Source of the DNA: an uncultured bacterium
GTDB taxonomy: Bacteria; Muiribacteriota; UBA9980
Direction: 5' to 3'
NCBI GenBank assembly: GCA_964545075.1
Contig: CAZJFS010000003.1
Coordinates: 18,661-82,660, forward strand
Length of the DNA: 64,000 nucleotides
Each line of letters starts with the position of its first letter. Position 1 is the first letter of the stretch. The notes below the pieces were generated by a model, which ran no database searches, was not told the DNA's origin, and saw only the letters and a list, made by a program, of their open reading frames with translations. The translations under genes were made by a program, and so were the position numbers. Positions 5,795-57,222 of this stretch are shown here, piece after piece.

Positions 5795-5797
5795 TTT

Positions 5798-7116: not shown

Positions 7117-7117
7117 A

Positions 7118-10559: not shown

Positions 10560-10653
10560 TTAATATTTTCCTCCACAAAATTCCTGGAATCAAATTAATA
10601 TAAGCTTATAAAAGCCTAATTATATCATAAATTAATGCCGATATCAAGATATA

Positions 10654-33569: not shown

Positions 33570-33601
33570 CGTTCTACCTCTATTTTCTATGATGTCAATA
33601 A

Positions 33602-34594: not shown

Positions 34595-34597
34595 AAT

Positions 34598-34816: not shown

Positions 34817-34817
34817 T

Positions 34818-35354: not shown

Positions 35355-35411
35355 TTTAACCCTTTATCATTTCAGTTGTGAATTATATTATATCATCGGA
35401 TGCTTAATTAA

Positions 35412-35945: not shown

Positions 35946-36922
35946 TTCACATCCTCCTTTTTATTATTTCCTTCCATTTTGTCCGATGCGCTTGAATTGA
36001 TGAAGTCCTTGATAAGGGAAAGAATCGGTTGGATATTGCTTATAAAATCGAACTTGTCCGAATACATATTGTTTTTTCTTTCAGCGGCGGTTATCAGCAA
36101 TATATTTTCGGGTGAAATGTCGCTTATGAGAAGGCCGTTGAATCGGTCGAGAAAGCCGGAGCCGATGTTTCTGAAAAAGGTCTTTTTCAGAGGAAAAACC
36201 ATTATCCGGCATATCTGGCCGCCGGTTTTCATCGTGAAGGCGACCCTTATCTGCTCGAATTTGCCGGGAAGAAAAGTTTCGCAATAAAGTCCGGCCTGGG
36301 TTCCGTTAATTTTTATGTCGGCTATATTCGCGCAGATCTCGTCTTTTCTTATTTCGCGCGGCGCTGAAAGTTCCATTTTATGTTTTACCGCATTATAGAT
36401 CGCCTTGTAAATGTTGGCCGCCGAGGCGCCGTTATCGTCCGCAAGTTTTATTCCACGATTTTCCCGGATCTTTGTGAGTATCCTGTTTGAAATAAGTTCC
36501 ATGTCGTCGACTGAGTCGGATGATTTGAGGATGAGTCCGCGCGAGGTAAAGCTCATTGTGCGGTCCTGCTTTATGAAAAATTTTATCCAGGGAGCGGTTT
36601 CCTCGGGAAATTTATAATCTTTAAAGGCTTCTTCAAAATCGGCGCTGTCTTTATGCAGATCGAGCCCCGCGTTATAAGAGTCCAGCTTTTCGGGCGCGAC
36701 GCCGGCCTGCCAGGAATAGATTCCGGGCGGAAGGTCGTCGTTTTTGATATGGTTTCCAAGAAACGAGCGGAAAATTTCTTCGGGCGACAGCTTGAGTCCT
36801 TTGTTTTGCGATGTTTTCAGAACGTTTGAGAACGGGCGGCTTGCGATATCGGCGGCCATTATTGAAAAAGCGATGGAAATAACGAATATTAAAGAGGCGG
36901 CCAGGCTTTTACGCGCGTTCAT
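35942..36922 (-). CDS. rnfG: Membrane-anchored protein in the RnfG position (divergent; no obvious S/TGAT FMN-attachment motif)
   Basis: It has an N-terminal TM helix and sits between rnfD and rnfE. No canonical FMN_bind SGAT(S/T) motif was found by eye. Confidence 0.35.
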   Translation of the reverse strand: MNARKSLAASLIFVISIAFSIMAADIASRPFSNVLKTSQNKGLKLSPEEIFRSFLGNHIKNDDLPPGIYSWQAGVAPEKLDSYNAGLDLHKDSADFEEAFKDYKFPEETAPWIKFFIKQDRTMSFTSRGLILKSSDSVDDMELISNRILTKIRENRGIKLADDNGASAANIYKAIYNAVKHKMELSAPREIRKDEICANIADIKINGTQAGLYCETFLPGKFEQIRVAFTMKTGGQICRIMVFPLKKTFFRNIGSGFLDRFNGLLISDISPENILLITAAERKNNMYSDKFDFISNIQPILSLIKDFINSSASDKMEGNNKKEDVN

Positions 36923-36923
36923 A

Positions 36924-37910
36924 TCAGGACCTCCTGCGGCTGGTTATTTCGTCAAGCGCGGGTACCAGGGAAGACGATATTAAAAGCGCGTAATTGGTCA
37001 TATCCATACCATTGCCGTAAACACCGAGCATGTAAGCCGTGGAACCGAAAAATGCTCCGTATATGTAGCGTGAAAAACGTCTTTCAGGAGAAGAATAATA
37101 ATCTGTCAGCACAAAACATGAATAAAACAGGAACAGGCTTCCGAATGCGTGATAAACGAACTCGGAGACTACGCCCCAGAAACCCCTGGAAAAAGTGAAC
37201 ACGCAAACTGCGAGGAAAAGTCCGGAGAAGGAGCCGACGATCGAAACCGCGTCGACTGACTTTTTAAGGTAAAGCGAGAACGCTACGATGAGTATAACGA
37301 TTATCGAAGTTTCGCAATAATGTCCGGGATACCAGCCCGCCAGAAGCTTTATAAGATTTTGAAGCCCCGCTGACGTGGCGTCTGAAACGGCCGTGGCGTT
37401 CTTGAATGTAAAGCAGTTAGAATATTCGTCGATGGGGAACGGGAAAAACCATTGTTTTGACATGAAGGGCCGTGGATAATTGAAATAAAGCATTTTGTTG
37501 CCGAAGGAAATCGTCAGAAAGGCTATCGAGACTGAAACGGGGTTGAATATTCTGAAAATATTTCCCGAAGGCGGGAAGAAAGTCAGAAGATAAACGATAA
37601 TAGCCCCTAAAATAGCTATGTATAAAGGAACTCCGGCTGGAAGCAGGAGCGCGTAAAGGAACGCGTAATAATAATTTTCATATCCGATATCGGCGAAACG
37701 CCTTCCGCGTTTTTTCAGTTCGAAATAGGTCGGAAGAAGAACGAATAAAATGGCGGTGAAAATGGTCAGCATTGCCATAATACCATAGTTGTAAACCGAA
37801 ATAAGGATGACCGGAAGAAGCGCGAGCGCCCTCGTTAAAAAGATCGAACTTTTAGACAGAGGCGAGTGGATGTATGGGTGTATTGAAACGGCAAGCTCCA
37901 TGTCGGCCAT
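36924..37910 (-). CDS. rnfD: RnfD/NqrB-family polytopic membrane subunit
   Basis: GHYCETSIIVILIVAFSLYL matches the GxLGETSALALLLGGLYL pattern. TDYYSSP…GAFFGSTAYMLGVYG matches ATDPVTSP…GALIGLL. Confidence 0.7.
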   Translation of the reverse strand: MADMELAVSIHPYIHSPLSKSSIFLTRALALLPVILISVYNYGIMAMLTIFTAILFVLLPTYFELKKRGRRFADIGYENYYYAFLYALLLPAGVPLYIAILGAIIVYLLTFFPPSGNIFRIFNPVSVSIAFLTISFGNKMLYFNYPRPFMSKQWFFPFPIDEYSNCFTFKNATAVSDATSAGLQNLIKLLAGWYPGHYCETSIIVILIVAFSLYLKKSVDAVSIVGSFSGLFLAVCVFTFSRGFWGVVSEFVYHAFGSLFLFYSCFVLTDYYSSPERRFSRYIYGAFFGSTAYMLGVYGNGMDMTNYALLISSSLVPALDEITSRRRS

Positions 37911-39226
37911 CAGTTTTCACGCCCCTTTATATTGGACTGAAGGATCATCTTTTTCGAAAGTATTATCGAGTGCGTAATATTTATCCGCGAGGGGCAGATA
38001 TAAGAGCAGACGCCGCATTCTATGCATGAATAAATTCCGGCTGCCGCGGTTTCGGAATGTTTTCCGAGGCGGCTAAGACGGTTTATAAATGCAGGATTTA
38101 AGGAGGCGGGGCAATGATCGATGCATTTTTTACAGCGCATGCATGTCTCCTCGTGCGGCGTAGAAAGGCGTTCGGTTGGAAGAAGCGTCAGGGCGCTGGT
38201 AGTTTTTATAACCGGGACGTTCGTCGTATATTGAGAGAAACCGGACATGAGGCCGTCTATCACCATGGAATTAACTGTTCCGCAAAGACCGCCGCATTGT
38301 TCGATTATTTCGGAGATCATTGTTCCGATGCGAACCTTTACGTTAGATGGTTTTGCGATGGCATATCCCGAGACCGTGAGATAGGTATCTATCTGGGGTT
38401 TGTTAAACTTTAGCGCTTCATATAAAAAATAAGCGACGGAGGCGTCGAGGACGAAGCAGCCGGCATCGGAGAGTTTCCCGTGCCTTATGTCCGCCTTTAA
38501 TATGCAGGATGCGAGTATCGCTTCGTTTCCCTGCGGGTATTTATCGGTCACTCTAATTATTTTAATGTTTTTATAAGCTGATATAGCGCTTTCAAGCGTC
38601 GCTATAAGTTTTTTCATGTGGTAAGGCACGGCCAGAAAAATGAACTTCGGTGAGAGCGCCGAACTCATGAATAATATTCCGCTTAAAATTTCATCGGTAA
38701 AATTGCGCGCCATAGTTTCGACGTTGTGCACATAGGGTTCGTTCTGGACAAAATTTACTATAAGGTAGTAAATCTGCTTGTTTTTAATTTCCGAAAGTTT
38801 GTACCAGAGAGGATAATTGGAAGAAGCGCGATCGACTATGGAGCATTGCCTGGATTTTTCTATTATTTCATCCAGTGAAAAAGCGGTCCGGTCAGAAACT
38901 TTTATTTCGCCGTTAGGCGTGTCCTGACCGTCGGAAGCTATAACCACGGCCGGTGAATATTTGTAGTGAGGATGCGTGAACTCGGAAACGCTTTCAACGG
39001 TACCTGAAAGCGGCGCATGGACATCGCAGGAAATAGCACCCATTCCTCTGGCAATTAGATCAAAAGTTTTTACCCGATCGCCTGGTTTAACGCATGCAAC
39101 AGCGGGCGAACCGTTATGCTGGCTTAGAAGCACGCATACCTTAGAGGGTATCTTCAGGGAAACGAGGGGTTTTTCCTCCGTGAGCTCATTGTTGAGCGGT
39201 AATTTTATTCCTCCGTGAAAATCCAT
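37910..39226 (-). CDS. rnfC: RnfC-like subunit (N-terminal RnfC domain, 51K-like core, 2x 4Fe-4S) with a degenerate Gly-rich loop
   Basis: The N-terminus reads MDFHGGIKLP…AISCDVHAPLSGTV. The segment LIVNFVQNEPYV matches IINGAECEPYL. The 4Fe-4S motifs are CMRCKKCIDHCP and CIECGVCSYICP. The expected GxGGAGFPTxxKL loop is replaced by RASSNYPLWYKL. Confidence 0.7.
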   Translation of the reverse strand: MDFHGGIKLPLNNELTEEKPLVSLKIPSKVCVLLSQHNGSPAVACVKPGDRVKTFDLIARGMGAISCDVHAPLSGTVESVSEFTHPHYKYSPAVVIASDGQDTPNGEIKVSDRTAFSLDEIIEKSRQCSIVDRASSNYPLWYKLSEIKNKQIYYLIVNFVQNEPYVHNVETMARNFTDEILSGILFMSSALSPKFIFLAVPYHMKKLIATLESAISAYKNIKIIRVTDKYPQGNEAILASCILKADIRHGKLSDAGCFVLDASVAYFLYEALKFNKPQIDTYLTVSGYAIAKPSNVKVRIGTMISEIIEQCGGLCGTVNSMVIDGLMSGFSQYTTNVPVIKTTSALTLLPTERLSTPHEETCMRCKKCIDHCPASLNPAFINRLSRLGKHSETAAAGIYSCIECGVCSYICPSRINITHSIILSKKMILQSNIKGREN

Positions 39227-43169: not shown

Positions 43170-44912
43170 TTAAAAAGGCAAGCGTTCGCATGAAAGATTA
43201 AAATATCCGTTAGAAGTTTTGTTTCGGCCGTATTTCGTGAAATCGATCGGCAGCGCTTTGGGAGTTTCAAGATTCGGCTGCTTTTTTATCTCGATTCCGG
43301 CGAAAAGCGAATAAATTCCGACGGCTATTCCTTCGGCTATCGCGTCCTGATTGTTTTTTAAAAGCATTCTGTCCTTCGAATTCGAAAGATATCCGATTTC
43401 GATAAAGGCGGTTATAGCGTTGGTGAAAAGGGGGATTGCCCAATCGGAAATAAACGGTTCACCGTGTTTTCCGAGTAATTCGTCGGCCTGGGCGTTCGCG
43501 GCGCCATAAAGCGAACTGAAATTATTCATAAGGGAGAGTCTTATAAATCTTATAAGTTCCTGGGACGAGTAGAAATTATCTCCGCCGTATCCTTCCGGAC
43601 CGCCCGATCTTTTATAGCACTCGTAAATCGAATTTTCGCGCATGAAAAAAAGAATGAATGAACTTAGCGGCGAATTGGTATTGTAGCGCCATGTGACCAT
43701 CAGGTACCGAAGTCCGATGAATTTATTCGTGAACGCGCGAAATCCTGTAAAATAGGTGGCGGTGTCTGATATAATTGTTCTGGTATCTATCGTGGAGAGC
43801 TTCTTGAACGTGGCGGTTATGAAGTCGGCGACCTGGCCGTAATTGTTTTCGCGGTTATACGTTTTATTTGGCGATGCTCCAGCGCCGCTGGCCGTTATGA
43901 GATTATTGACGTTTGAAAAAAACTGGAAATGAGGGGCTATGACCGCCGACATTCCGCGTGCGGACTTGCTGGGGCTTGAATTGACGTGAAGGCATACCAC
44001 CAGGTCGGGAGATATCTGGTTTATGTAGGAGATTCTGCCGAGAGCCATTTCAGCCGACGGCGTTTTTCCGTTAAACGATGCTGGACTGTCAAAAAGCCTG
44101 TATTTGTTGTTGATATTCGCAACATTTTTGTCGGGTTCACTGTCATGGCTAAATTTTCGGGTCAGGATGGAATTGATGCGCACGCGCCTTACCGTGGCTC
44201 CCGGATCGTTCATATATTTTTGAAGGATTTTTGCGAAATCTGAAAATCCTTTTTCCGTTTTCGTCAAGGCCAGAAGGGCGTCGACCTTTTTGGCCACCTG
44301 GAGCGTCCATTCATGTTCGTATATGCCGTTGCTTTGAGCGCCGAAATTGTACGGAAGAAGGAAAGTCTTCGAGAATGGGTCCCAGTGATCGCCGGAGTTG
44401 AACCTGGCGGGTTCGTACTTTCCGCCGTGGCCCGGGTCTAAAACTACCGAAAATGAATCCTGCTCGTCCGTTATATTTGGAGTTGCGGAAATTCCGGCGG
44501 TAGAGGCGGATGCCGGAATGGCGGGTTTGGAATATTTGGGCGCAAAATACGTGACGGGATTGACTTTGGGAGCTTCCGGCGCGTAATCAGCTGGTTTCAC
44601 TGTTCGCGGAACGTTTATGACCGGAGCTTTTTTGGCCGGCGGTATGTTTGAGATGGCCGGCGCTGAAGCGGCCGCACCCGCGTTGGCGTCATTTTGAGGA
44701 AGCGTCCCGTTTACGGGTACGGCGGCCGGGGAATCCTTTTTTAAAGGAAACTGAGGCGAAGGATGAGCGCTTTTCATTGCGTTAAGGCGGGCGCGAAGCG
44801 AGTCAATAAGCTCTTTTCTTTCGGAATTGATCTCGGCGCGGCAAAGCTGGGCTATCATAAGAGCTGCCGAAATGCTAAAAACGAGAGTCAAAAAAAATCT
44901 GGATCTTTTCAA
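43170..44912 (-). CDS. Secreted divergent Amidase_3 (N-acetylmuramoyl-L-alanine amidase-like) family protein, paralog A (580 aa)
   Basis: It has a signal peptide and a Pro/Ala-rich linker. The Amidase_3 Zn-ligand motifs VVLDPGHGG, GIYEHEWTLQVAKKV and DLVVCLHVNSS are present. Confidence 0.55.
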   Translation of the reverse strand: MKRSRFFLTLVFSISAALMIAQLCRAEINSERKELIDSLRARLNAMKSAHPSPQFPLKKDSPAAVPVNGTLPQNDANAGAAASAPAISNIPPAKKAPVINVPRTVKPADYAPEAPKVNPVTYFAPKYSKPAIPASASTAGISATPNITDEQDSFSVVLDPGHGGKYEPARFNSGDHWDPFSKTFLLPYNFGAQSNGIYEHEWTLQVAKKVDALLALTKTEKGFSDFAKILQKYMNDPGATVRRVRINSILTRKFSHDSEPDKNVANINNKYRLFDSPASFNGKTPSAEMALGRISYINQISPDLVVCLHVNSSPSKSARGMSAVIAPHFQFFSNVNNLITASGAGASPNKTYNRENNYGQVADFITATFKKLSTIDTRTIISDTATYFTGFRAFTNKFIGLRYLMVTWRYNTNSPLSSFILFFMRENSIYECYKRSGGPEGYGGDNFYSSQELIRFIRLSLMNNFSSLYGAANAQADELLGKHGEPFISDWAIPLFTNAITAFIEIGYLSNSKDRMLLKNNQDAIAEGIAVGIYSLFAGIEIKKQPNLETPKALPIDFTKYGRNKTSNGYFNLSCERLPF

Positions 44913-45028
44913 TTTAAAATTACCTCACAAATTCTGGTTTAATAAAGCTAGCAACGTACTCTATACTTTTTAAAATAAAAGATCAGGTTACAATCTTTTA
45001 TTTTGATTATTTTAACATAAAACTGAAT

Positions 45029-45346
45029 TTATTTCCATATAATATTTATTTTATCGCCGGGCATGAATTCGCCGGACATTACTTCCTGGCGGATAGAAGA
45101 GTTATCGTAAACCGTGTATTTATGATGCCCGCTTGGAAGCGATATCCAGTAACTGGTTTCGGCGAATATCTGCGTTTCGAGCTTTCCGTCTATATAAAGA
45201 AGGACGGTTTCGCTTCCGAGATTAGTAAAGGCCGAACTTGTCGCGGCGTCGCAGTCCTTCTCATCGTTGTCAAGAATACATCCTGAATCAATGAAAAGAA
45301 CAAGAAATAAAAATAGTATCAGTAACAGTTCCGTTTTTCTTAGCAT
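45029..45346 (-). CDS. Small hypothetical lipoprotein (105 aa)
   Basis: The signal carries a DSGC lipobox. It lies between the two amidase-like paralogs. Confidence 0.45.
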   Translation of the reverse strand: MLRKTELLLILFLFLVLFIDSGCILDNDEKDCDAATSSAFTNLGSETVLLYIDGKLETQIFAETSYWISLPSGHHKYTVYDNSSIRQEVMSGEFMPGDKINIIWK

Positions 45347-45368
45347 GCCTTCACTTTATGACATTAAA

Positions 45369-47090
45369 TTACTTCTGTTGTTTTAAAACCGATCTGAAAT
45401 AATCGCCGTATTTGGTCATGTTGATCTTTTGGCCGAGTGGAAATTCCAGGGGTTCCTTAGAATATACCGGCGGTTCGGGTTGGGCCGCTTTCTGAGTTTT
45501 TTTAACGGCGGAAGGTTTCATTTTACTTTTTAATTTATTTAAAAGTATTGAAGTTCTTGGTTTTTCAAAAAAATCGGTCCGCGCCGCCTTCGGCTGTATT
45601 GATTTGCCGTCCGTATTCTGGAGCGAGGCGGCCAGCCGAGGGTTTGTCTTTAGAAGTGCGTCTTTGGTGTTCGCTATTTTTCTGGGCGTCATGCCGCATA
45701 AAAGCGAATATACCGAAACCGCCATAGATCTTGCGATGACATCTTTTTTATTCACAAGGATATTTCTGTCTTCAGGGTTTTCGAGATATCCGAGTTCTAC
45801 GTAGGCGGTCACCGCGTTTATAAGCTGCGGCAGCGCCCAGTCGGATATGAAAGGACGGCCGTGGTTTCCAAGATATTCGTTCGGGGTTTTTACCGCCGCT
45901 ATTTCGCCGGCGGGTTTAGCGCATTTAGAAGCGTAGTCTTTCCACAGGCCCATGCGGACATATTTCAGAATTTCTTCTGACGCGTAAAAATTGTCGCCTC
46001 CAAATCCAAGCGGCCCGCCGTCGCGGCGCATGGATTCCTCGGCTGAGCGTTCGCGGTGCCAGTATGAATCGGGGTTTTTATAACTTAAAAGGTTGTTGTA
46101 TTCATCGTCTTCCGAGTAACGCCATTGGACCATCTGCCAGCGTTTTCCTATGCTGCCGCGTGTGGCGGTGCGTTTTCCGGTAAAATAGGTGTCACTGTCG
46201 TTTATAAGATCGGAAAGTTTTCCTAAAACCATGTTGTCATAGTAGAACCAGGAAAGAACCCAGAAATAAGTCATGGCTGATCTCATGCCAAGCCTGTCTT
46301 TAATGGTTTTAACGAAGTCGAATACGCGATATCCGGGTATTATTACGGATGCCGGGCCGCGCATGCCGTGATTGGTCGAAGAATTGACATGGACGCATAG
46401 AACCAGTTCGGGCGCTTCCGCATTGATTTTGCTCATTCGGCCGGGGAAAAGGTTTGGCGACGGCTGTTTTTTAGCATTGAAGCTTTCGGGAGAATCAAAT
46501 AGCCGGAAATGTTTGTCCGCATTGTCGTCGCCCTTGTACTTAAGAGATTCATAAGAATCCACGCGGCTCATTTTAACATTGAATTTTATTCGTCTGTATT
46601 CTTCAGGTTTCATTATGCCATATTCGGCCAGAATTCTGGAAAAGTCACGCCATCCTTCGTCGGTGTTGGCTTTTTGAAGTATATCGAACACTTTTGAACA
46701 GATATCTAAGACTATGGCGTGTTCGCATTCTCCATCGTAGGCCGCTCCGAAATTGTAGTTGGTTAAAAACCTTTTGGCTTTTATATCCCAATGGTCGCCT
46801 TTGTTTTGGGAAGCGCGTTCGGAGGTTCCGCCGTGGCCCGGATCTAAAACGATCCTGTATTCTTCGAGATCCGGCGTGCGTCGCGTGTCGTTTTTTGAAG
46901 ACAGATGTTCGCCATTCTGCCCGTCAGGCGAACTATAGTCAAATAGCCGCGCTATAAAATTATTTTTTAATGACATGTTCAATCCCGCCTGCGCCGGTGT
47001 GGAAATCGTCGCGCATATTAAAATGGCGGCTAAGACAGGGTTGAGTTTTATAAGGTTGGCAAAAATTTGACGCAGCTTCAAAAATAACAT
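45369..47090 (-). CDS. Secreted divergent Amidase_3-like family protein, paralog B (573 aa)
   Basis: The motifs IVLDPGHGG, GECEHAIVLDICSKV and ELVLCVHVNSS are present. It is collinear with paralog A, including the shared C-terminal segment ISDWA(I/L)P…GYL(S/E)N. Confidence 0.55.
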   Translation of the reverse strand: MLFLKLRQIFANLIKLNPVLAAILICATISTPAQAGLNMSLKNNFIARLFDYSSPDGQNGEHLSSKNDTRRTPDLEEYRIVLDPGHGGTSERASQNKGDHWDIKAKRFLTNYNFGAAYDGECEHAIVLDICSKVFDILQKANTDEGWRDFSRILAEYGIMKPEEYRRIKFNVKMSRVDSYESLKYKGDDNADKHFRLFDSPESFNAKKQPSPNLFPGRMSKINAEAPELVLCVHVNSSTNHGMRGPASVIIPGYRVFDFVKTIKDRLGMRSAMTYFWVLSWFYYDNMVLGKLSDLINDSDTYFTGKRTATRGSIGKRWQMVQWRYSEDDEYNNLLSYKNPDSYWHRERSAEESMRRDGGPLGFGGDNFYASEEILKYVRMGLWKDYASKCAKPAGEIAAVKTPNEYLGNHGRPFISDWALPQLINAVTAYVELGYLENPEDRNILVNKKDVIARSMAVSVYSLLCGMTPRKIANTKDALLKTNPRLAASLQNTDGKSIQPKAARTDFFEKPRTSILLNKLKSKMKPSAVKKTQKAAQPEPPVYSKEPLEFPLGQKINMTKYGDYFRSVLKQQK

Positions 47091-47373: not shown

Positions 47374-48024
47374 TTAAGCCTGTTCCATGAAACGGGCTTT
47401 TCGTTCCATGGTTCGAATGACCGATATGACGCGCCCCAATATTTTGACGTCGTTGACATATATGGGCTGCATTTCACAGTTGGCTGGCTGCAGGCGGATC
47501 CGATCGTGCTCGCGGTAAAATCTTTTGAGCGTCGCCGTTTCGTTTTCAACGAGGGCTACGACGATGTCGCCATTAGCGGCATGGTTTTGTTTTCTGACAA
47601 GGACCATATCGCCGTCGTCGATGAGATCTTCGATCATGCTTTTTCCACGAACTTTCAGGATGAACGCTTCACCGTTTGTGAGAAGCGACCTGGCGACCTG
47701 GATGGTCTCCTGATAGTCTTCGTAAGCGAAAATCGGCTGTCCGGCGGCTATTTCGCCGATGACGGGGACTTCGATCAAATCGTCGCCGTGTGTGTCGGCG
47801 TATTGCCATCTGACGGGTTTTATGGAGCGTGATTTTCCCGAGGATTTTAAGATATGACCCTTTCTTTCAAGTTCCGAAAGGTGATAATGTATGGTTGAAG
47901 TTGATTTCGTTCCGATGAAAGTTCCGATCTCTTTTATGCTTGGGGCGGAGCCTGTGGTTTTCATTTCGGATACTATGAAGTCAAGGATCTGTTTCTGGCG
48001 CTCGGTAAGTTTTTCTATGGTCAT
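47374..48024 (-). CDS. lexA: LexA repressor (SOS regulator, S24 peptidase)
   Basis: The N-terminal wHTH reads LTERQKQILDFI. The Ala-Gly cleavage site reads IAAGQP. The catalytic Ser and Lys lie in …KVRGKSM… and …TLKRF…. The start was set at MTIEKL; the ORF track begins at 48054. Confidence 0.9.
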   Translation of the reverse strand: MTIEKLTERQKQILDFIVSEMKTTGSAPSIKEIGTFIGTKSTSTIHYHLSELERKGHILKSSGKSRSIKPVRWQYADTHGDDLIEVPVIGEIAAGQPIFAYEDYQETIQVARSLLTNGEAFILKVRGKSMIEDLIDDGDMVLVRKQNHAANGDIVVALVENETATLKRFYREHDRIRLQPANCEMQPIYVNDVKILGRVISVIRTMERKARFMEQA

Positions 48025-48057
48025 TATTATTTCACCCCTTGATAAAAAGTACACTCA

Positions 48058-48075
48058 TTCGAAAATATTTTCGAA
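48058..48075. promoter_or_regulatory. Putative LexA operator (perfect 18-bp palindrome TTCGAAAATATTTTCGAA; Cheo-box-like CGAA-N6-TTCG)
   Basis: The perfect palindrome was read from the sequence, 34 bp upstream of the lexA start. It resembles the Gram-positive-type SOS box CGAACnnnnGTTCG. Confidence 0.5.
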
Positions 48076-48306: not shown

Positions 48307-49827
48307 ATGAAGAGGTCCGGTTATAAAATTTTACTTCTCGACGCCCCTCAATCCATCTGGAAATGGTTTGATGGTACTCTGCCTTCCCCGGCTCTGGCCA
48401 TATTCGCATCATATTTTAAAACCTTGTACGAACTTAAAATACTCGATCTGAATATCGAAAAAAAACCATGGACGCTTCTAAAAAAGGTGCTGGCTGAGTT
48501 CGAACCTGACCTTGTCGCGTTGCCATGCACGCACACATGCCATTTGAACGAGGTCGAAGCGAGCCTCCGGCTTATCAGGAAATTTTCGCCTAAGTCCGTT
48601 ATAATTGGCGGTGGAGTTCATTTCAACGTGTTTTATAAGGAGTTTCTAGAAAAGAACCTCGTTGATTTTGTATGTCTCGGTGAAGGCGAACTCACATTCA
48701 CCGAACTCGCCGGAGCTTTGAGCGATATACGCCGGAGCTATGGCACGCCATCGGCTGTTTCATTCGAAGAAAAAATAGGCCGTATTAAAAAAATAGACGG
48801 GCTGGCGTTTTCGGTGAACGATGAGATAATTAAAACCGGCGCGAGAAAACAGATCGAAAATCTGGATACGATACCTCTTCCGTCTTATGAGCTTTTTCAG
48901 ATGGAACGCTATAAAATTCCTATATACGGCGGAAACGAGACCTTTGGAATGACTTTCGGGCGCGGATGCCGCAACAGGTGCTGTTATTGCTCGGAGTCGT
49001 TCGGATGGAACTATACGCTTCGAAGAAATTCGCCGGCCTATGCCGTGAAGCATATCGAATTATTGCATAGCGTCTTTAACCGGCGGACCTTTATTTTCGC
49101 CGACACTGATTTTCTCGTCGATAAAAAATGGTGCGAGGAATTCGTGGCCATTATTAAAGAAAAGAAGTTGAAGATAAATTTTCATATCCAGACGGCGTGC
49201 AGGACGCTTTTGAAAAATGTGGAGCTGCTTCCGAAATTGAAAGAAATAGGCCTGTTTGAAGTAATGCTCGGAACGGAGTCCCCGTTTCAGAAAGTTCTGG
49301 ATAAATTGAAAAGTTTTCCCCAGAGCGTAGAGATAATGACGAATGCCATGAAAGCGGTTAAAGGCAACGGTCTTCTTCTTATGGCGATGATGTTTTGGGG
49401 GACCGAATATGACGATGCTCAGACGCTGCGGCAGGGCCTTAAATTTTTTGATAAGTACGCGGATATAGTATGCCCAAATGCCATGACGCCTTATCCGGGA
49501 ACGCCCCTTTACAATGAATTGACGGAGAAAGGCGTTATTCGCGTTGACGACCTTTCGCTCTACGATCAATCTCATATAATAGTACCCGCCGGAAACATGA
49601 GTTATGCTCAGACGCGCTGGGCATTCGAAAAGGAGCTCATACTGCACTTTAATTTCAATCCTAAATTTTATATGGGGCTTTTTTCGAAAAACAGGTTTTT
49701 ACGGACTAATTATTGGCATTATTTAAAACTGATATGGATGCAGGCTTTCGAAGGGCTTATGTCGCCGGTCAAATACAGGAAGGAATTATACGCTAAGAGC
49801 GAGTTCGATAAAATAATGGGGTCATAG
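48307..49827 (+). CDS. B12-binding-domain radical SAM protein, paralog 1 (506 aa)
   Basis: The N-terminal Rossmann-like B12-binding-type domain reads KILLLDAP…GGGVHFN…GEGE. The rSAM motif GCRNRCCYCSES is Cx3Cx2C. A shared C-terminal domain carries MMxWGTE and TPYPGTPLY. Confidence 0.75.
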   Translation: MKRSGYKILLLDAPQSIWKWFDGTLPSPALAIFASYFKTLYELKILDLNIEKKPWTLLKKVLAEFEPDLVALPCTHTCHLNEVEASLRLIRKFSPKSVIIGGGVHFNVFYKEFLEKNLVDFVCLGEGELTFTELAGALSDIRRSYGTPSAVSFEEKIGRIKKIDGLAFSVNDEIIKTGARKQIENLDTIPLPSYELFQMERYKIPIYGGNETFGMTFGRGCRNRCCYCSESFGWNYTLRRNSPAYAVKHIELLHSVFNRRTFIFADTDFLVDKKWCEEFVAIIKEKKLKINFHIQTACRTLLKNVELLPKLKEIGLFEVMLGTESPFQKVLDKLKSFPQSVEIMTNAMKAVKGNGLLLMAMMFWGTEYDDAQTLRQGLKFFDKYADIVCPNAMTPYPGTPLYNELTEKGVIRVDDLSLYDQSHIIVPAGNMSYAQTRWAFEKELILHFNFNPKFYMGLFSKNRFLRTNYWHYLKLIWMQAFEGLMSPVKYRKELYAKSEFDKIMGS

Positions 49828-49840
49828 CGTAAGCATATAT

Positions 49841-51367
49841 ATGAAGAATCAGGAATATAAAATACTTCTGGTCGACGCCCCTGAAAGGCTTTCACTCTGG
49901 TTCGACGGAACGATCCCCTCGCCGGCGCTTTCCATACTCGCGTCCTACGTTAAAACCAGATACGAGCTGAAGGTGCTGGACCTGAATATTGAAGAGCGGC
50001 CGTGGAACGTTTTGAAAATGGCGCTGGATGAATTTAAACCTCACCTGATCGGGCTTTCATGCACCCATACATGCCAGATGAACGAAGTAATGGCCGTCGC
50101 CCGGCTCGTCAGAAGATTTTCGCCTTCATCGCTTATCGTCGGAGGCGGAATATATTTCAGCGTTTTTCATGAAGAAGCTATTTGCGATGGATTGATCGAT
50201 ATAGCGGTAATAGGCGAAGGAGAAATGACGTTTTCCGCTCTCGCTAAAACGTTAAGCGCCATAGAGGCTGAAAGGAAAGCGGGAGCGCAAATTACGCGGG
50301 CGGATATCTCGCGAAGGCTTGAAACGATTGATGGGCTGGCGTTCAAAGACGAAACGGGTTCGATAATTAAGAGCTCGCCAAGAAAATATATTGAAAATCT
50401 CGATTCGATACCGTTCCCCTCTTATGAACTCTATCCGATCGATAAATATAAATCGCCCACTTTCGGAGGCGGCGAGGCATTCGGAATGACGTTCTCGCGC
50501 GGATGCGCCAACAGATGTTATTTCTGTTCCGAATCCGCCGGATGGAACCATACGCTCAGGCGCCATTCGCCCGAATACGCGGTGCGCCATCTGGAGATCA
50601 TATACCGCAACTACGGCCGCAGGGTATTCGTTTTCGGCGATACGGACTTTTTGTCGGATAAAAAATGGTGCGAAGATTTTATCGCCCTGATAAAAGCGAA
50701 AAAAATAACGATAAATTTTCATGTGCAGGCTTCGTGCAATTCTGTCATTAAAAACGAGGAGCTCCTTCCGAAACTGAAAGAAATAGGTCTTTTCGAGGTT
50801 ATGATCGGAGCTGAATCGCCGTTTCAAAAGATACTCTCTAAATTGAAAAAGCCATACAGCGATAAGGAAACGGTCGTCGGGGCGATGGAGCGCGTAAAAA
50901 AACACGGGCTTTTACTTATGGCGATGCTTGTCTGGGGAACCGAGTTCGACGACGAAAGCACGCTGCACGAAGGACTTTATTTTTTTGATAAATACGCTGA
51001 TATCGTCTGTCCCTGCCTTTTGACGCCTTATCCCGGTACGGAGCTATACGATGAGATGAAGTCGAAGGGACATATTAATGTCGCCGATTTCGCCTTCTAC
51101 GACCAGGCTCATGTTATAGTTCCCGCGGGTAATATGAGCTATAAGGAGACAAGGCGGGTGTATGAGAAGGAACTTTGCCTCTATTTCAATCTTAACCCGA
51201 AATTTTATATGAAGCTTCTTTCAAAAGACGCTTTTATGAGGATGAACCAGGCGGCGTTCTTTAAGATGGTATGGGCCCGCACGTTCGAGTGCGTCACAAG
51301 CCAGGGCGGCTATAAAAAGGACCTTTTTAACAACAGCGAGTATCTTAAGCTAATGAACATGAGGTGA
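49841..51367 (+). CDS. B12-binding-domain radical SAM protein, paralog 2 (508 aa)
   Basis: It is collinear with paralog 1 (KILLVDAPE…; GCANRCYFCSES; TPYPGTELY). It starts 13 bp after paralog 1. Confidence 0.75.
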   Translation: MKNQEYKILLVDAPERLSLWFDGTIPSPALSILASYVKTRYELKVLDLNIEERPWNVLKMALDEFKPHLIGLSCTHTCQMNEVMAVARLVRRFSPSSLIVGGGIYFSVFHEEAICDGLIDIAVIGEGEMTFSALAKTLSAIEAERKAGAQITRADISRRLETIDGLAFKDETGSIIKSSPRKYIENLDSIPFPSYELYPIDKYKSPTFGGGEAFGMTFSRGCANRCYFCSESAGWNHTLRRHSPEYAVRHLEIIYRNYGRRVFVFGDTDFLSDKKWCEDFIALIKAKKITINFHVQASCNSVIKNEELLPKLKEIGLFEVMIGAESPFQKILSKLKKPYSDKETVVGAMERVKKHGLLLMAMLVWGTEFDDESTLHEGLYFFDKYADIVCPCLLTPYPGTELYDEMKSKGHINVADFAFYDQAHVIVPAGNMSYKETRRVYEKELCLYFNLNPKFYMKLLSKDAFMRMNQAAFFKMVWARTFECVTSQGGYKKDLFNNSEYLKLMNMR

Positions 51368-51373
51368 GCCGAT

Positions 51374-52870
51374 ATGAAAGTATTGTTTTTAGACCCGATC
51401 CATAAGGTTTGGGAGTTTTTCAGGGGACTGACCGCGAATCCGGCGCTTATATACCTTGCAGCCGTGGCGCGCCGCGATTTTGACGTAAAGGTATACGACG
51501 CTTACGCCGAATCGGGCAGGCCGTGGAATAAAACCGCGGAATATCTTGAAAAAGAGCGCCCTGACGTCGTTTGTCTTCCCGGCTCGATCCCGGCTTTCTG
51601 GTACGATGTTCTCAACTGCGCGCGCCTGGTGCGCGAGATTCTTCCTGACGCAAAGATCGTCACCGGCGGTTATATCTCAAATCAGTTGTGGCGCGATGGA
51701 CTCGCGAGCGGCCATATCGATTATATAGTTATTGGCGAGGGCGAGGTCACGATGATGGAATTATTGAAGGCTATAAATGGCGGCGCGTCCGGTTTAGCCG
51801 AAATTAAGGGGCTCGCATATCTCAAGGACGGCAAACCTTTCCAGACGGCTGAACGCGGTTTCATAGAGGATCTCGACACGCTTCCGCTGCCGGCTTATGA
51901 TCTGTTTCCGATGCACCGCTATTCTCTGGCACCGTTCGGCGGCAATATCGGCTTTACAGCGACATTCGCGCGCGGATGTACCGGCCGCTGCAAGTTCTGT
52001 TCGGAAACGCTTCTGTGGCGTCATTGCTGGCGGGGCCACAGCGCCGAATATATGGTCGAGGCGCTTTCACTGCTTAGGTACAAATATAACAAGCGGGTGT
52101 TTTATATAGGCGACGACGATTTTTTACACGATCCTGAGCGCACCGAAAAATTCACGGAACTTATACTGAAAAATAAGATCGACATTAAAATGTGGATACA
52201 GACCACCTGCCATAACGTGGTCAGGAACGCGAAATTGCTGGCGGGCCTTAAAAAGGCTGGCGTCTATCAGATTATGGTGGGCATCGAAACGCCTAAGCCA
52301 AAGGGCCTGAAAGTGCTTAACAAGCCTCAGGACTTCGACCTTGTAATGCGCGCGCTCGAAGCGCTGAAACCCCACGAATTCATAATAATGGGCATGATGA
52401 TGTGGGGAACGCCATGGGATACGAAGCAGGACCTGATCGATAATCTCGAATTTCTGGACGAGCACTGCGATATAATCGGCCCCGACGCTGTTACGCCATG
52501 GCCTGGAACGCCTTATTATGACGAGTGTGAAAAGATGGGCGCGATCGAAGTGCGCGACCTCACGCAATACGATATGACAAACTGCATAACCCGCACGGCC
52601 GAACTTTCGGCTGCCGAGTCCGATTTCTATTACAAAAAAACCGTCGGAAAACATCTCATATTCAACAAAAAATTCCTGGGCAACTATTTATTTTCCAAGA
52701 AGCCGCTCTACAGGACATACGTGAATATGTTCGTGAAGATGGGCTGGAGTTTTTTCACTATGAAGCCGTGGACGCAGAAGAACTATCAGAGTTTCGACGA
52801 ATTCTATCCTGAATTTATCGCTAAAAAGACTGCCTATGAAATGCAGAAAACCGGCGTTATGGCGCGTTGA
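51374..52870 (+). CDS. B12-binding-domain radical SAM protein, paralog 3 (498 aa)
   Basis: The N-terminus is MKVLFLDPIHKVWEFF… and the rSAM motif is GCTGRCKFCSET. It starts 6 bp after paralog 2. Confidence 0.75.
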   Translation: MKVLFLDPIHKVWEFFRGLTANPALIYLAAVARRDFDVKVYDAYAESGRPWNKTAEYLEKERPDVVCLPGSIPAFWYDVLNCARLVREILPDAKIVTGGYISNQLWRDGLASGHIDYIVIGEGEVTMMELLKAINGGASGLAEIKGLAYLKDGKPFQTAERGFIEDLDTLPLPAYDLFPMHRYSLAPFGGNIGFTATFARGCTGRCKFCSETLLWRHCWRGHSAEYMVEALSLLRYKYNKRVFYIGDDDFLHDPERTEKFTELILKNKIDIKMWIQTTCHNVVRNAKLLAGLKKAGVYQIMVGIETPKPKGLKVLNKPQDFDLVMRALEALKPHEFIIMGMMMWGTPWDTKQDLIDNLEFLDEHCDIIGPDAVTPWPGTPYYDECEKMGAIEVRDLTQYDMTNCITRTAELSAAESDFYYKKTVGKHLIFNKKFLGNYLFSKKPLYRTYVNMFVKMGWSFFTMKPWTQKNYQSFDEFYPEFIAKKTAYEMQKTGVMAR

Positions 52871-53003
52871 TATCTTATTCGCCGGCCTTTTCGCGCGCGG
52901 CAGGATTTTTTCAGGCCGTTTATAAAAAGGTCCTTCATAGTTTAATGACTGATCGCTTTAACGGTAACAAGTATTTTAAGTTAATGGATATGGGGTGATT
53001 GGA

Positions 53004-54497
53004 ATGAAAGTATTATTTTTGGATCCACTGCATAAGGTTTGGGAATTTTTTCGTGGACTTACGGCTTCGCCGGCTCTTATATATCTTGCCGCCGTGGCGC
53101 GTCGCGAATTCGACGTAAGAGTATTTGACGCATCCATGGAGTCCAAGGATCCGTGGAACAGGACCGCGGAATATCTCTTGCGCGAAAGGCCCGACGTGGT
53201 TTGTATAACCGGCTCTATAACCGGTTTCTGGAATGATTCGCAGAACGCCGCGAAGCTCGTGCGCGAAACGCTTCCGGAAACCAGGATAATAACCGGCGGC
53301 TATATTGCCTCGCGTCTCTGGAATGAAGCGCTTCAAAGCGGGTTTTTCGATTTCGTCGTCATAGACGAAGGCGAACTGACTTTGCTTGAATTACTGAGCG
53401 CGCTCAATTCAAATTCCTCGGCGGATTATTCAAAGATAAGAGGGCTCGCTTATTTGGAAAAAGGCGTCCCCCGAAAAAACGTGGACCGTGAATTTATAGC
53501 CGATCTGGATACATTGCCGCTGCCGGCTTATGATATGTTCCCGATGGATCGTTATTCGCTGGCGCCATTCGGCGGTCACATCGGTTTCGCGCTCAGCTTC
53601 AACCGCGGCTGTCAGAACAAATGCAAATTCTGCTCCGAGACGCTTCAATGGAAACATATGTGGCGCGGACACGGCGCCGAATATATGGTTGAAGTTTTAG
53701 AGCTATTGAATAAAAAATATAATAAAAAAGTTTTTTACGTCGGCGACGATGATTTTTTACACGACCGTGAGCGCACTATAAAATTCATAGAACTCATGGA
53801 CAAAAAGAAGCTCGATATAAAAATGTGGATACAGACCACATGCTATAGCGCTATCGCGAATGTAGACCTTTTAGCGGGGTTAAAACGCATAGGCGTCCAC
53901 CAGTTCATGATGGGGATCGAAACGCCGAAACCGCTGGGAATGAAAAATCTCAACAAGCCACAAAACATCGATATCGTCATGAAAGCGCTCGAAACGGTCA
54001 AGCCGTTCGGATTCATTATGATGGGAATGCTTATGTGGGGCGCGCCCTGGGATAAAAAGGAAGACCTCGATTACGCTCTCGATTTTCTCGGCAAACATTG
54101 CGATATCATCGGGCCGAACGCCACCACTCCCTGGCCTGGAACGCCATATTACGATGAATGTGAAAAGATGGGCGCGATCGAAGTGCGAGACCTTACCAAA
54201 TATGACATGACCAACGTCATAACCAGGACCGCCGAACTTTCGGCCGCCGAAGCCGATTTTTACTACAAGAAGACGGTCGGAAAATTTTTGATGCTCAATA
54301 AGAAATTTCTTGGAAATTACATGTTTTCAAAAAAACCGCTCTATCGTGAATATATAAATATGTTCGTCAAGATGGGCTGGCGTTTCTTTATAATGAAACC
54401 CTGGTATCAGAAGAATTATCAGCCTTTCGAAGAGTTTTATTACGATTTTATCGCGAAAAAAGCGTCGGTGAAAATGACCGCGCAGCTTGTGAAATGA
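53004..54497 (+). CDS. B12-binding-domain radical SAM protein, paralog 4 (~497 aa)
   Basis: The N-terminus is MKVLFLDPLHKVWEFF… and the rSAM motif is GCQNKCKFCSET. It is about 70% identical to paralog 3 by eye. It follows a 133-bp gap. Confidence 0.75.
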   Translation: MKVLFLDPLHKVWEFFRGLTASPALIYLAAVARREFDVRVFDASMESKDPWNRTAEYLLRERPDVVCITGSITGFWNDSQNAAKLVRETLPETRIITGGYIASRLWNEALQSGFFDFVVIDEGELTLLELLSALNSNSSADYSKIRGLAYLEKGVPRKNVDREFIADLDTLPLPAYDMFPMDRYSLAPFGGHIGFALSFNRGCQNKCKFCSETLQWKHMWRGHGAEYMVEVLELLNKKYNKKVFYVGDDDFLHDRERTIKFIELMDKKKLDIKMWIQTTCYSAIANVDLLAGLKRIGVHQFMMGIETPKPLGMKNLNKPQNIDIVMKALETVKPFGFIMMGMLMWGAPWDKKEDLDYALDFLGKHCDIIGPNATTPWPGTPYYDECEKMGAIEVRDLTKYDMTNVITRTAELSAAEADFYYKKTVGKFLMLNKKFLGNYMFSKKPLYREYINMFVKMGWRFFIMKPWYQKNYQPFEEFYYDFIAKKASVKMTAQLVK

Positions 54498-56017
54498 GGA
54501 TACTTTTTTTAGATCCGCCACACGCGCCATGGGATTTTTTTCCGGGCCGAATGCCTTCGCCGGGCCTTATGGCCATTGTTCCGTTCGCCGTAGGCGCGGG
54601 ATGCGACGTGGCCGTGCTCGATTTATCGCTTGAGATCGATCCGGCGGCGGCACTTGAAAAAAAGGCCGCCTCGTTCGCGCCGGACGTCGTGGCGATATCC
54701 GGCTCTAAATCGGCTTTCGCATTCGAGACGGCGAACGCCGCCATGCTTGCTCGAAAGTTCCTTCCCGCGGCGGTTATAACGGGCGGCGGAAATTTCGCTT
54801 CGTCATACGCCGGCGACCTCGTTTCGCGCGGGCTATTCGATATAATAATAAAAGGCGAAGGAGAACTTCCTTTTTCGGCCATTTTAAAGGCCCTGAAAAA
54901 AAACAAGCCGGAAGATATAAAAGCTATAGCGGGCCTCATATATTCAAAAGAAATGATGGCTTTCCCAAAAAGTTACCGCAAGCGGCTTTCCGGGATTTTT
55001 TCAAAATTTGAGATTTCGCGGGCCGAAGGGTTCCGTTCATGCGCGAATGTTTTTGACCGAGAAAAAATTTTTGAGTTCGAAGATACCGGTTCCGCCGAAT
55101 TTATAGCGGATATGGATACGCTGCCGCTTCCAGCTTTCGAATATTTCGACATGGATAGTTATACGCTGCCGCCGCTCGGCGGGAAAACCGGCTTCGTTCA
55201 AAGCTTCAGCCGGGGATGCGGAAAGCGCTGTTCGTTCTGCGCCGATTCGCTCTTCTGGGGGCATACCTGGCGAGGCTTTTCGGCCGAACGGTGCGTTGAA
55301 ATATTAAAGACCCTCTCGTCCGCGTATGGCCGCCGGATAATTTATTTCGGCGACGCCGACTTTTTCTGGAACCGGAACCGGAACCTTAAATTTTTAGAGC
55401 TCCTCGAAAAAGAAAGGGAAGCCGGCGGGCTTAAAATAAATTTCTGGCTGCAGAGTTCCGTCGATAATATATTGGCGAATCGCGATCTTTTGAAAAGGTA
55501 TCGTAAAGCCGGCTTGTATCAAATAATGTGCGGCTTTGAAAGCGTTTCTGGCGCCGCCCAGAGCGCTTTCAAAAAGGTCCATTCTATCGATAAAATGACG
55601 GAGGCGGCGCGAGCGGTGAAAAACGCAGGCATAATAATCATGGGGATGATGATGTGGGGCGATTACGGCGACGACGAAATAACGCTCGGCGAGAACCTCG
55701 ATTTTCTGGTAAAAAACTGCGACGTTATAGGGCCTAACACAGTGACCCCTCATTACGGCACGCCGTATTTCGAAGAATGCGAAAAGCGCGGCCTGGTCAC
55801 GAAATATTCGACGCTTGGAAGCGACCAGTGCTACGTCATCATGCCGACTTACTCGCTCGATATTTCCGGCGCGGAAAAAGTTTATAAAGACATGGTTTTA
55901 AAGACCCTGATATCGAAAAAAAAGTTCATAGGGAACTATCTTTCCGCTCCCGGGCTCAGGATAAAAAAAATTCTTTCAGATCTTATCGAAAATGGATATG
56001 AGGGGAAAGCGTCATGA
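54494..56017 (+). CDS. B12-binding-domain radical SAM protein, paralog 5 (507 aa, most divergent)
   Basis: The N-terminus is MRILFLDPPHAPWDFF… and the rSAM motif is GCGKRCSFCADS. The C-terminal region carries MMMWGD and TPHYGTPYF. Its start overlaps the paralog 4 stop by 4 bp (ATGA). Confidence 0.75.
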   Translation: MRILFLDPPHAPWDFFPGRMPSPGLMAIVPFAVGAGCDVAVLDLSLEIDPAAALEKKAASFAPDVVAISGSKSAFAFETANAAMLARKFLPAAVITGGGNFASSYAGDLVSRGLFDIIIKGEGELPFSAILKALKKNKPEDIKAIAGLIYSKEMMAFPKSYRKRLSGIFSKFEISRAEGFRSCANVFDREKIFEFEDTGSAEFIADMDTLPLPAFEYFDMDSYTLPPLGGKTGFVQSFSRGCGKRCSFCADSLFWGHTWRGFSAERCVEILKTLSSAYGRRIIYFGDADFFWNRNRNLKFLELLEKEREAGGLKINFWLQSSVDNILANRDLLKRYRKAGLYQIMCGFESVSGAAQSAFKKVHSIDKMTEAARAVKNAGIIIMGMMMWGDYGDDEITLGENLDFLVKNCDVIGPNTVTPHYGTPYFEECEKRGLVTKYSTLGSDQCYVIMPTYSLDISGAEKVYKDMVLKTLISKKKFIGNYLSAPGLRIKKILSDLIENGYEGKAS

Positions 56018-57222
56018 AATTTATGGATGATCTTTTTAGGACGGGATATTTTTTAAATTTCAGCGAAAAATTATTTCTATATCTTATAAAATTCATGACG
56101 CTCGTATTCGCCGTTATTTATTATTTTCATTATGCTTTTGTCATCGACCCCACATTCAATAAGTTTTTATTTTTATATTTTTTGACTTTCATAGTCTCGG
56201 GTTTTTTCTTCACTCTTCTTCCGCTGAAAGACGAATGGATATGCGCGCTGGAATTTTTCAAAATCCAGGCAGGGCTTTACAATGCGGATAAAAAGTTATA
56301 CGAAATTGCATCGGAAAAACTCGCCGTGGAAGCGAAAATAACGAGAGATGAATCGGCTGAAGCGCTCGCTGGTTCCTTCGCCAGCTTTAAAAGCGATTAT
56401 TTCATAGTTTACCCTGCCTGGTTCGCCGTATTGGCGATGACGTTCGTCATCGAGGCGTTTGTCTTCGTGAAGTTGGATCCGCTTCTTGTCCAGAAAAATT
56501 TTGCCGTTCTTTCGGCTTTTCTGACCCTCGTCCATGTGTCGGCGATGAATTCGACATTTGAAAATTTTTCCGGCCTTCCCGGCTCTACTCACTCAGGATT
56601 TTCGATTCTTCTGGTGTGCCTCTTCGCCGTCCGTTCCGTGTTTTTCGCGATTCTTTATAGAAACGCGTGTTTTCAAGTTGCGATCGCCCTGATTCTGACT
56701 TATTTCTTCGGTAAATTATTCGCGCTTTTATATTACGGAGATGGGTTTCAGATATTCGTCAGGACTCGCGACAGGAACATATGGCGGATGGCTTTCGACG
56801 CGCGCATGACGCGCGTTGTAGAATGCGAAAAGCTTCCATTTACGATGAAATGCCGTTTTCTTAAAACGCCCTATTCGACCGCTATAGCTTTTTATGAATC
56901 GGGTGCGCGCGTTTCCGAATTTCATTTCACTCCTTACCGGCTTGGAGTTGAAAAAGAAAGCGTGGAAACGGCGGCCAGGATTTTCGCCGAGCGGCTTAAG
57001 ATCAGCGACGGCTTAAAGGCCACGGGAAGCGTTGCCGATCTTTTCGAAGAGATTACGCTGCTCGACCTGGCGAGAAAATACGGCCGCGAACAGACCGCAG
57101 TGAGCGTTTCGCTGATCGCGTCATCTTATCTTATGTGTTATGAACTTTTTCTCATTTATACGGGGGCGAATTCGCCTAACGATAATTATTTCGAGATCAT
57201 CAAAGTGATTTTGGGATTCTGA
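56014..57222 (+). CDS. Hypothetical polytopic membrane protein (N-terminal ~6 TM helices plus a C-terminal soluble domain), translationally coupled to the rSAM array
   Basis: Its start overlaps the paralog 5 stop by 4 bp. The N-terminal half is hydrophobic, the C-terminal 170 aa are charged and soluble, and no family is recognised. Confidence 0.55.
   Translation: MKFMDDLFRTGYFLNFSEKLFLYLIKFMTLVFAVIYYFHYAFVIDPTFNKFLFLYFLTFIVSGFFFTLLPLKDEWICALEFFKIQAGLYNADKKLYEIASEKLAVEAKITRDESAEALAGSFASFKSDYFIVYPAWFAVLAMTFVIEAFVFVKLDPLLVQKNFAVLSAFLTLVHVSAMNSTFENFSGLPGSTHSGFSILLVCLFAVRSVFFAILYRNACFQVAIALILTYFFGKLFALLYYGDGFQIFVRTRDRNIWRMAFDARMTRVVECEKLPFTMKCRFLKTPYSTAIAFYESGARVSEFHFTPYRLGVEKESVETAARIFAERLKISDGLKATGSVADLFEEITLLDLARKYGREQTAVSVSLIASSYLMCYELFLIYTGANSPNDNYFEIIKVILGF

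Follow-up and report, generated by a model that had tools for sequence, protein, structure and literature searches.

Tandem middle genes of a Wallbacteria cobalamin-binding radical SAM operon as probable pseudo-paralogs joined at a duplication scar

Adjacent genes of similar sequence invite the assumption that one is a copy of the other, and a 64,000-nt stretch of DNA from an uncultured bacterium (GTDB lineage Bacteria; Muiribacteriota; UBA9980), here called the window, raises the question of whether this is so. The window (NCBI GenBank assembly GCA_964545075.1, contig CAZJFS010000003.1, positions 18,661 to 82,660 of the forward strand) carries an array of five genes for B12-binding radical S-adenosylmethionine (SAM) enzymes, P1 to P5. 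Homologs assign the organism to Candidatus Wallbacteria. A first-pass annotation took two of them, P3 and P4, for the products of a recent duplication within the array. Our analysis favors a different origin, in which P3 and P4 are probably pseudo-paralogs, that is, two long-diverged alleles of the array's middle gene that came from different Wallbacteria lineages and were put in tandem by one duplication-type junction. The array and the gene that follows it are listed here, with g1 to g4 denoting the ortholog positions in Wallbacteria arrays.

48307-49827, plus strand: P1 (g1), with PF02310 and PF04055; the gene that heads the array, whose orthologs come first in the arrays of all relatives.
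49841-51367, plus strand: P2 (g2), with PF02310 and PF04055; the tail relic of the spacer described below derives from a sequence of the type of its last ~66 nt (51302-51367).
51374-52870, plus strand: P3 (g3a), the resident middle gene, ortholog of the sole g3 in the closest syntenic relatives.
53004-54497, plus strand: P4 (g3b), an additional copy of the middle gene, of a separate g3 lineage and without counterpart in the relatives L105 and L107.
54494-56017, plus strand: P5 (g4), with PF02310 and PF04055; it overlaps the P4 stop by 4 nt, and the head relic derives from a sequence of the type of its first ~56 nt.
56014-57222, plus strand: a multi-pass membrane protein of 402 amino acids (aa), overlapping P5 by 4 nt.

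Much of what had been noticed about the pair is borne out. The junctions, in order from P1/P2 to P5/membrane protein, measure +13, +6, +133, -4 and -4 nt, and the 133-bp gap between P3 and P4 (52871-53003) is indeed the sole sizeable one. A pairwise comparison, which the first-pass annotation had proposed as a check, places P3/P4 (70.0% aa, 68.6% nt identity) above P1/P2 (57% aa, 62% nt) and all remaining pairs (32-41% aa). The three peptides quoted as shared occur in both proteins, and the quoted nucleotide run was recovered as a 26-mer present exactly twice, at 52529-52554 and 54162-54187, with none expected by chance. This 26-mer is part of a 29-nt in-register identical run, the longest between the two genes (52526-52554, plus strand; partner at 54159-54187), which is mildly unusual under a codon-usage null (P=0.018). 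It sits in the ECEKMGAIEVRD motif, the most conserved of the family, and 28 of its 29 nt are identical in the ortholog of L011, from another lineage; the motifs that P3 and P4 have in common are, more generally, conserved in all orthologs. The five-gene arrangement is not a mis-assembly, a possibility raised with the original claim, because two independent assemblies from other samples, of anaerobic digesters, L009 (ENA) and L010 (JGI), carry the identical gene order at 99.8% nt identity to the window. The P4 protein is 100% identical to the protein on both of these contigs, and the entry P0267 in our protein cluster table is identical to P3.

What fails is the description of the two copies as near-identical in DNA and recent. 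Identity at third codon positions is 46% and synonymous sites are saturated: synonymous divergence (dS) amounts to 1.6-3.4 over the genes as a whole and never falls below 1.1 in a 40-codon window, with a ratio of nonsynonymous to synonymous divergence (dN/dS) of 0.07-0.14. Where P3 and P4 have identical residues, the codons are identical in a fraction of 0.506, which is not elevated over the 0.44-0.57 found for orthologs of different species. The differences are greatest at residues ~100-160.

Which of the two copies belongs to the array is answered by the closest relatives, L105 (GCA_964551445.1) and L107, which were found in a protein search with P5. These are sister genomes, with g3 proteins 95% identical to each other, and their synteny with the window continues downstream through the membrane protein, a 287-aa ORF (open reading frame), and isochorismatase, metallophosphatase, G5 and biotin-lipoyl genes. 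Their arrays consist of four radical SAM genes only, with no P4. Their g3 is 89-92% identical in aa to P3 (dS 0.66-0.78), much as g2 (91-92%, dS 0.62-0.71), g4 (83-86%, dS 0.85-0.88) and the other neighbors (71-90%, dS 0.6-1.2) are to their counterparts in the window, but it shares only 70% with P4, at saturated dS. Since the g3 of L105 and L107 matches P3 in the way the flanking genes match, and does not so match P4, P3 is therefore the resident ortholog and P4 the extra gene. The reverse assignment, with P3 a recent xenolog and P4 the resident, was an interim idea drawn from the distant relatives L001, L011 and L004 only, and it was overturned by L105 and L107.

Arrays of more distant relatives have three radical SAM genes (L004, L095) or a g1-type gene directly upstream of g3 (L097 and L013, whose contigs end inside the g1-type gene). 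The 402-aa membrane protein follows g4 in L001, L011, L013, L095, L097, L105 and L107 and is missing after g4 in L004 and L005, whose arrays were sampled past that gene. The conserved Wallbacteria operon has the order g1-g2-g3-g4-membrane protein. The trees show P1 and P2 to stem from an older duplication common to several lineages. Only the window's species group and the clade of L001, L011 and L101 possess g2, though L097 and L013 branch between them, and because of this patchy distribution the gene must have been gained or lost repeatedly. A scan of genome contigs with a derived peptide pattern returned no Wallbacteria among the matches listed, the pattern being too unspecific.

Gene trees, with 500 and 400 bootstraps, separate the two middle genes entirely. 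P3 and P4 were sisters in 0% of bootstraps, while P4 formed a clade with P0006 (on contig L094) and the L099 gene in 100%. In the g3 tree the P3 group (window, L105, L107) is nested within the L001/L011/L101 clade (99%), with L097 and L013 as successive outgroups (100% each), whereas in the g1 and g4 trees that clade together with L097, and in the g4 tree also with L013, excludes the window's group (100%). RuvB of the window is likewise 79-80% identical to that of every other Wallbacteria, against 86-97% within the other clade. Because the g3 tree is discordant with g1, g4 and RuvB, the P3-type allele was probably itself introgressed into the whole species group at an earlier time. Synonymous-codon identity between P3 and the g3 of L011 is 0.574, as compared with 0.441 for the flanking genes (Fisher 1e-5), and in L101, a co-occurring digester lineage, g3 is 88% identical to P3 while its neighbors reach 66% (g1), 57% (g2) and 57% (g4). 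Distances from the P4-type gene are flat, at 67-72% to all lineages, like those of g1 and g4, from which it appears that the P4-type may be the species group's original allele. The middle gene of the array has an unusual propensity for exchange.

The 3′ end of g3 and the first ~25 nt of g4 also occur in two types (L105 ~4384-4473; L107 ~2576-2665; window 52840-52925 and 54467-54556). The type ATCTTATTCG.CG is found in L107, L101 and the window's relic, and the type ATACT.TTT.T.GA in L105 and the window's P5; L105 has, in addition, a different g3 C-terminus. These features indicate mosaic recombination around the g3/g4 junction.

How P4 came to lie beside P3 can be read from the spacer between them, which is composed of the remains of two neighboring genes.

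52867-52918, plus strand: relic of a g4 head (P5-type), ~52 nt directly after P3 and collinear with g4 heads; its start codon is changed from ATG to TTG.
52912-52918, plus strand: the novel joint, a microhomology of CAGGCCG at the overlap of both relic alignments.
52912-52998, plus strand: relic of a g2 tail (P2-type), the last ~66 nt of g2 including the stop TGA and a Shine-Dalgarno-like GGGGTGA, just before P4.

The P3 stop accordingly reads TTGA where relatives show an ATGA stop/start overlap with g4. Against the P2 tail, the tail relic aligns locally at 34/39 positions (z 9.3, a score reached by 0/1000 shuffles), at 54/63 with gaps and at 53/72 in fixed columns. The head relic matches the window's own P5 head with a local score of z 3.0 (P=0.012) and a gapped alignment of 37/46 identical positions. 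CAGGCCG is common to CCGGGCCG in the g4 head and CCAGGGCG in the g2 tail. The tail relic carries a 24-nt in-frame insertion (52937-52960) that is lacking in strain L010. Both relics match sequences of the window's species group; tails of distant lineages gave no match to the tail relic, and the long spacers of the three-gene arrays of L004 and L095, used as controls, were without relics. Those of L004 measure 174-206 nt (9795-10000 and 11492-11665) and contain no detectable relics. Judged by its composition, then, the spacer is the novel joint expected from a head-to-tail repeat of a ~1.63-kb unit of g2 tail, g3 and g4 head. An alignment of the left half of the spacer to a further-upstream part of the P2 tail was dropped, as the collinear g4-head alignment supersedes it.

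The scar also dates the junction relative to the genes on either side. Over its 133 nt there is 1 single-nucleotide polymorphism (SNP) against L009, and there are 3 SNPs and the 24-nt indel against L010, so that the spacer evolves quickly, these strains being 99.8% identical overall. The g2-tail relic nevertheless is still 68-74% identical to present-day g2 tails (fixed columns). Because this fast-evolving scar is only ~26% diverged while the synonymous sites of P3 and P4 are saturated, the split between P3 and P4 predates the junction, and copies made by this junction could not have diverged so far in place. The proposed intra-array duplication therefore stands as far as the joint is concerned, which is real and of the duplication type, but not for the genes that it joins, which are never sisters, have saturated dS and are not recent duplicates of each other.

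Under the explanation that we favor, either of two histories could have produced the pair. In one, an unequal, illegitimate recombination would have joined the resident array to DNA from a related strain of Wallbacteria bearing a P4-type allele; a local duplication followed by replacement of the second copy with the P4-type allele would be equivalent. In the other, both alleles would already have been in tandem in the ancestor of the species group, and the sister lineage would later have collapsed the repeat. A gain in the window's lineage is no more and no less parsimonious than a loss in the sister lineage, because the tail relic is equidistant from the tails of the window and of L107 (74% each). 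This equidistance is one of several points that weigh against the explanation. A P4-type g3 inside an otherwise window-type four-gene array was found in no genome, which leaves the donor lineage hypothetical. The g4-head relic is short and decayed, and its support (P=0.012 plus collinearity) is modest. The trees are neighbor-joining trees of single genes of ~500 aa. Finally, the compositional signal is weak, as the GC content at third codon positions (GC3) is 0.615 in P3 and 0.556 in P4 against 0.51-0.57 in neighboring genes.

Of the other ways to account for the pair, a recent tandem duplication of one gene in this genome, with slight divergence since and with copies that still serve as recombination substrates, is barely credible. 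It would fit with P3 and P4 being the closest pair of the array, with the true duplication joint in the spacer and with the 29-nt identical run, but that run falls in a motif conserved at the nucleotide level in other lineages, and the saturated dS, the 46% third-position identity and the failure of P3 and P4 ever to be sisters all speak for a far older split. It also leaves unexplained why the g3 of L105 and L107 is 89-92% identical to P3 and 70% to P4, and why P4 has nearer relatives (84-85% aa) in other organisms. To regard P4 as a hyper-mutated copy of P3 does not help, since this accounts neither for the saturated synonymous sites nor for the P4-type relatives elsewhere. Moving the duplication back in time, to an in-situ event deep in Wallbacteria without any transfer, after which most lineages dropped one copy, draws some plausibility from array sizes of three to five genes, which make gene loss conceivable, and from the older P1/P2 duplication common to several lineages. 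We consider it very unlikely all the same. A scar that evolves so fast could not have kept ~74-86% identity to its sources over the time in which dS became saturated, and the relics are of this species group's type rather than that of a deep ancestor. The P3-type g3, moreover, is discordant with g1, g4 and RuvB, so that a transfer is needed anyway, and P4-type genes elsewhere are solitary and lie outside arrays.

A variant in timing deserves more weight, although we still hold it to be the less likely course. Here the tandem formed in the ancestor shared with L105 and L107, when the P3-type allele was acquired beside a native P4-type, and L105 and L107 then collapsed the repeat through its two g4 heads and kept P3. 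The relic has diverged by ~0.3 per site, close to the dS of ~0.35 that each lineage has accumulated after the split, and a single loss is enough for these two sister genomes. In its g4 head, L107 is like the head relic beside P3 (ATCTTATTCG.CG) and L105 is like the P5 head, which different crossover points during the collapse could explain. On the other side, L105 and L107 bear no direct trace of a collapse, the argument from head types concerns ~20 nt, and the relic could equally postdate the split. The reading of P3 and P4 as long-diverged alleles joined by one junction is the one that we retain as probable.

The sequence of the pair bears on its further fate as well. The repeats had been described as substrates for homologous recombination, a process that needs a minimal length of homology; P3 and P4, which differ at 31% of nt and are nowhere identical over more than 29 nt in a row, are poor substrates. 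Gene conversion between them was considered and rejected, there being no window of low dS, and the cluster of strain SNPs in P3 is not a clean P4-derived tract. That cluster comprises 10 of the 17 SNPs that separate the window from the 10.9-kb contig of L009, all within a 91-nt tract of P3 (52093-52183); against L010, 13 of 20 SNPs lie inside P3. The variant states in the tract are mixed, with 6 as in P4, 3 as in the window and 1 unlike either. The tract resembles a short segment recombined in from a third allele of the P3 type, and not a clean conversion by P4. Ongoing homologous recombination between P3 and P4 is not supported. The expectation that copy number varies between strains fared in part: the gene count of the array differs between related species but does not change among the three strain-level assemblies.

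An internal promoter had been suspected in the spacer. No match to a sigma-70-like promoter was found in 52871-53003, nor was a terminator match, and the predicted RNA fold of this segment is unremarkable (z -0.5). The scar does contain one small reading frame.

52867-52998, plus strand: an ORF of 43 codons over the full length of the scar; it begins with a TTG that overlaps the P3 stop (TTGA) and ends with a TGA that overlaps a GTG at 52995 and lies 5 nt before the P4 ATG.

This frame is uninterrupted in all three strains despite the SNPs and the 24-nt indel, while 6% of shuffles are open too. It is conceivable, though we regard it as doubtful, that the scar was co-opted as a relay ORF that restores the translational coupling of P3 to P4, within a frequently exchanged B12-radical SAM module of which both alleles are kept. 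If that were true, Wallbacteria would permanently hold an ancestral and an introgressed allele of a self-sufficient module, the two alleles could widen the product range of a possibly lipid-modifying pathway, and the same module would also travel as a solitary gene beside transposase remnants.

Outside the array, P4 is 84-85% identical in aa to P0006 and to the L099 gene, both of which are solitary and stand in other, lower-GC contexts. On L099 a DDE_Tnp_1_6 transposase fragment (75-647) is found a short way upstream of the P4-type gene (869-2377; 84% aa and 77% nt identity to P4, GC3 0.32). On L094, a 3.4-kb contig (1-3434), P0006 is the sole gene, flanked by many GC-rich inverted repeats with no convincing ORFs, and direct repeats of ~120 nt with 97-100% identity (2-121 and 3316-3434) form the two ends of the contig. 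A circular element, a tandemly repeated one or a wrap-around in the assembly could each account for this. L099 and L094 have in common only the P4-type gene and ~140 nt upstream of it, and this shared extent suggests that the P4-type gene may move on its own. Beyond Wallbacteria, the closest g3 homologs are single genes of Elusimicrobia (L006-L008; gene at 10001-11479; 59-64% aa), whose neighbors, unlike those in the Wallbacteria operon, are an HxsD-like gene, several other radical SAM genes and a nitrogenase-like NifH/Oxidored_nitro fusion.

With respect to function, all five proteins have the N-terminal domain that defines class B radical SAM enzymes, as PF02310 (B12-binding) scores 35.7-53.2 bits in P1-P5, above the cutoff of 32.1, and PF04055 (radical SAM) is present in each. 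The cysteines of the CX3CX2C motif (C202, C206, C209) are invariant in 19-21 g3 sequences. Because this motif is kept and both genes are under purifying selection, P3 and P4 are both probably active cobalamin-dependent radical SAM enzymes. No curated equivalog of NCBIfam was reached. The best-scoring was BchE, the anaerobic Mg-protoporphyrin IX monomethyl ester cyclase (TIGR02026), which aligns over nearly the full length of P1-P4; at 140-192 bits against a cutoff of 481, however, P1-P5 are not members of that family, and among the 30 window ORFs scanned none had a Pfam match to bacteriochlorophyll-synthesis families. The sole sequence matches in the PDB (E 7e-12 to 7e-6) are OxsB, AprD4, CysS and TokK, in which a B12-binding Rossmann domain likewise precedes a radical SAM barrel, but this likeness is generic to the superfamily and assigns no substrate.

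The 402-aa membrane protein has no Pfam or NCBIfam match; its place in the operon suggests that the substrate or product of the array may be membrane-associated. The NCBIfam model for lipid-biosynthesis B12/radical SAM proteins (TIGR04072) scored 54-75 bits against a cutoff of 360. The first-pass annotation had proposed a positional division of labor among the paralogs, for which GrsA and GrsB offer a possible analogy, being paralogous B12-binding radical SAM synthases of glycerol dialkyl glycerol tetraether (GDGT) rings that act on one hydrophobic substrate with different positional preference (PMC13459092). Like them, the array consists of several class B radical SAM paralogs, but no specific sequence relationship connects the two. 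A search of the literature on Wallbacteria together with radical SAM enzymes found nothing relevant.

Upstream, and divergent from the array, lies a gene for a LexA-like repressor (47374-48054, minus strand; PF01726 and PF00717), which is also present in L009 and L010; in L001 and L011 the region upstream of the array lacks such a gene. The intergenic region between it and P1 (48055-48306) is AT-rich and contains a perfect palindrome, TTCGAAAATATTTTCGAA, at ~48058-48075, together with several promoter-like hexamer pairs. Two large Amidase_3 proteins are encoded just upstream of the LexA-like gene. Three further tracts of the window (2286-9300, plus strand; 32562-39226 and 43170-47090, minus strand) hold these and other genes, among them an Rnf-type cluster (RnfC, RnfD, a polyferredoxin and a further radical SAM gene), RuvB, SpoIID, PilM, a secretin and a glycogen debranching enzyme.

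In summary, the observation that first drew attention to P3 and P4 is partly confirmed and its interpretation partly supported. Adjacent similar genes of an operon are routinely taken as in-genome duplications, and their divergence is used for dating or to argue for neofunctionalization, which would be wrong here; where tandem paralogs of metagenome-assembled genomes are interpreted through dN/dS, the pair urges caution. Its legible scar, with the head of the downstream gene and the tail of the upstream gene meeting at a microhomology joint, provides an internal clock independent of the genes and makes this a clean teaching case. The analysis also defines a conserved Wallbacteria operon in which three to five genes for class B radical SAM enzymes are, as a rule, followed by the one for the membrane protein. 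The mechanism is ordinary and no general principle is altered: this is a well-documented case of a known phenomenon, pseudo-paralogs through allele capture, in an uncharacterized enzyme operon.

Two known systems frame the case. Pseudoparalogy, or xenologous acquisition, is reportedly a route by which protein families expand through horizontal transfer rather than duplication, and P3 and P4 share with it that apparent paralogs diverged before they came to reside together, that one copy is missing from the nearest relatives and that the gene tree conflicts with those of the neighbors and of a housekeeping gene. They differ in that the second copy is an exact tandem inside the same operon. Its joint is of the duplication type and consists of operon sequence, and in structure the event looks like a tandem duplication, not like an insertion at another site. 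The other parallel is with microhomology-mediated tandem duplications, whose join points have been studied in Salmonella and E. coli; here, too, there is a head-to-tail repeat with a novel joint at a 7-nt microhomology and truncated copies of neighboring genes on its flanks, which can be lost by recombination between the repeats. In this array, however, the gene bodies of the repeat are ~31% diverged and the scar much less so, which duplication from a single template does not explain.

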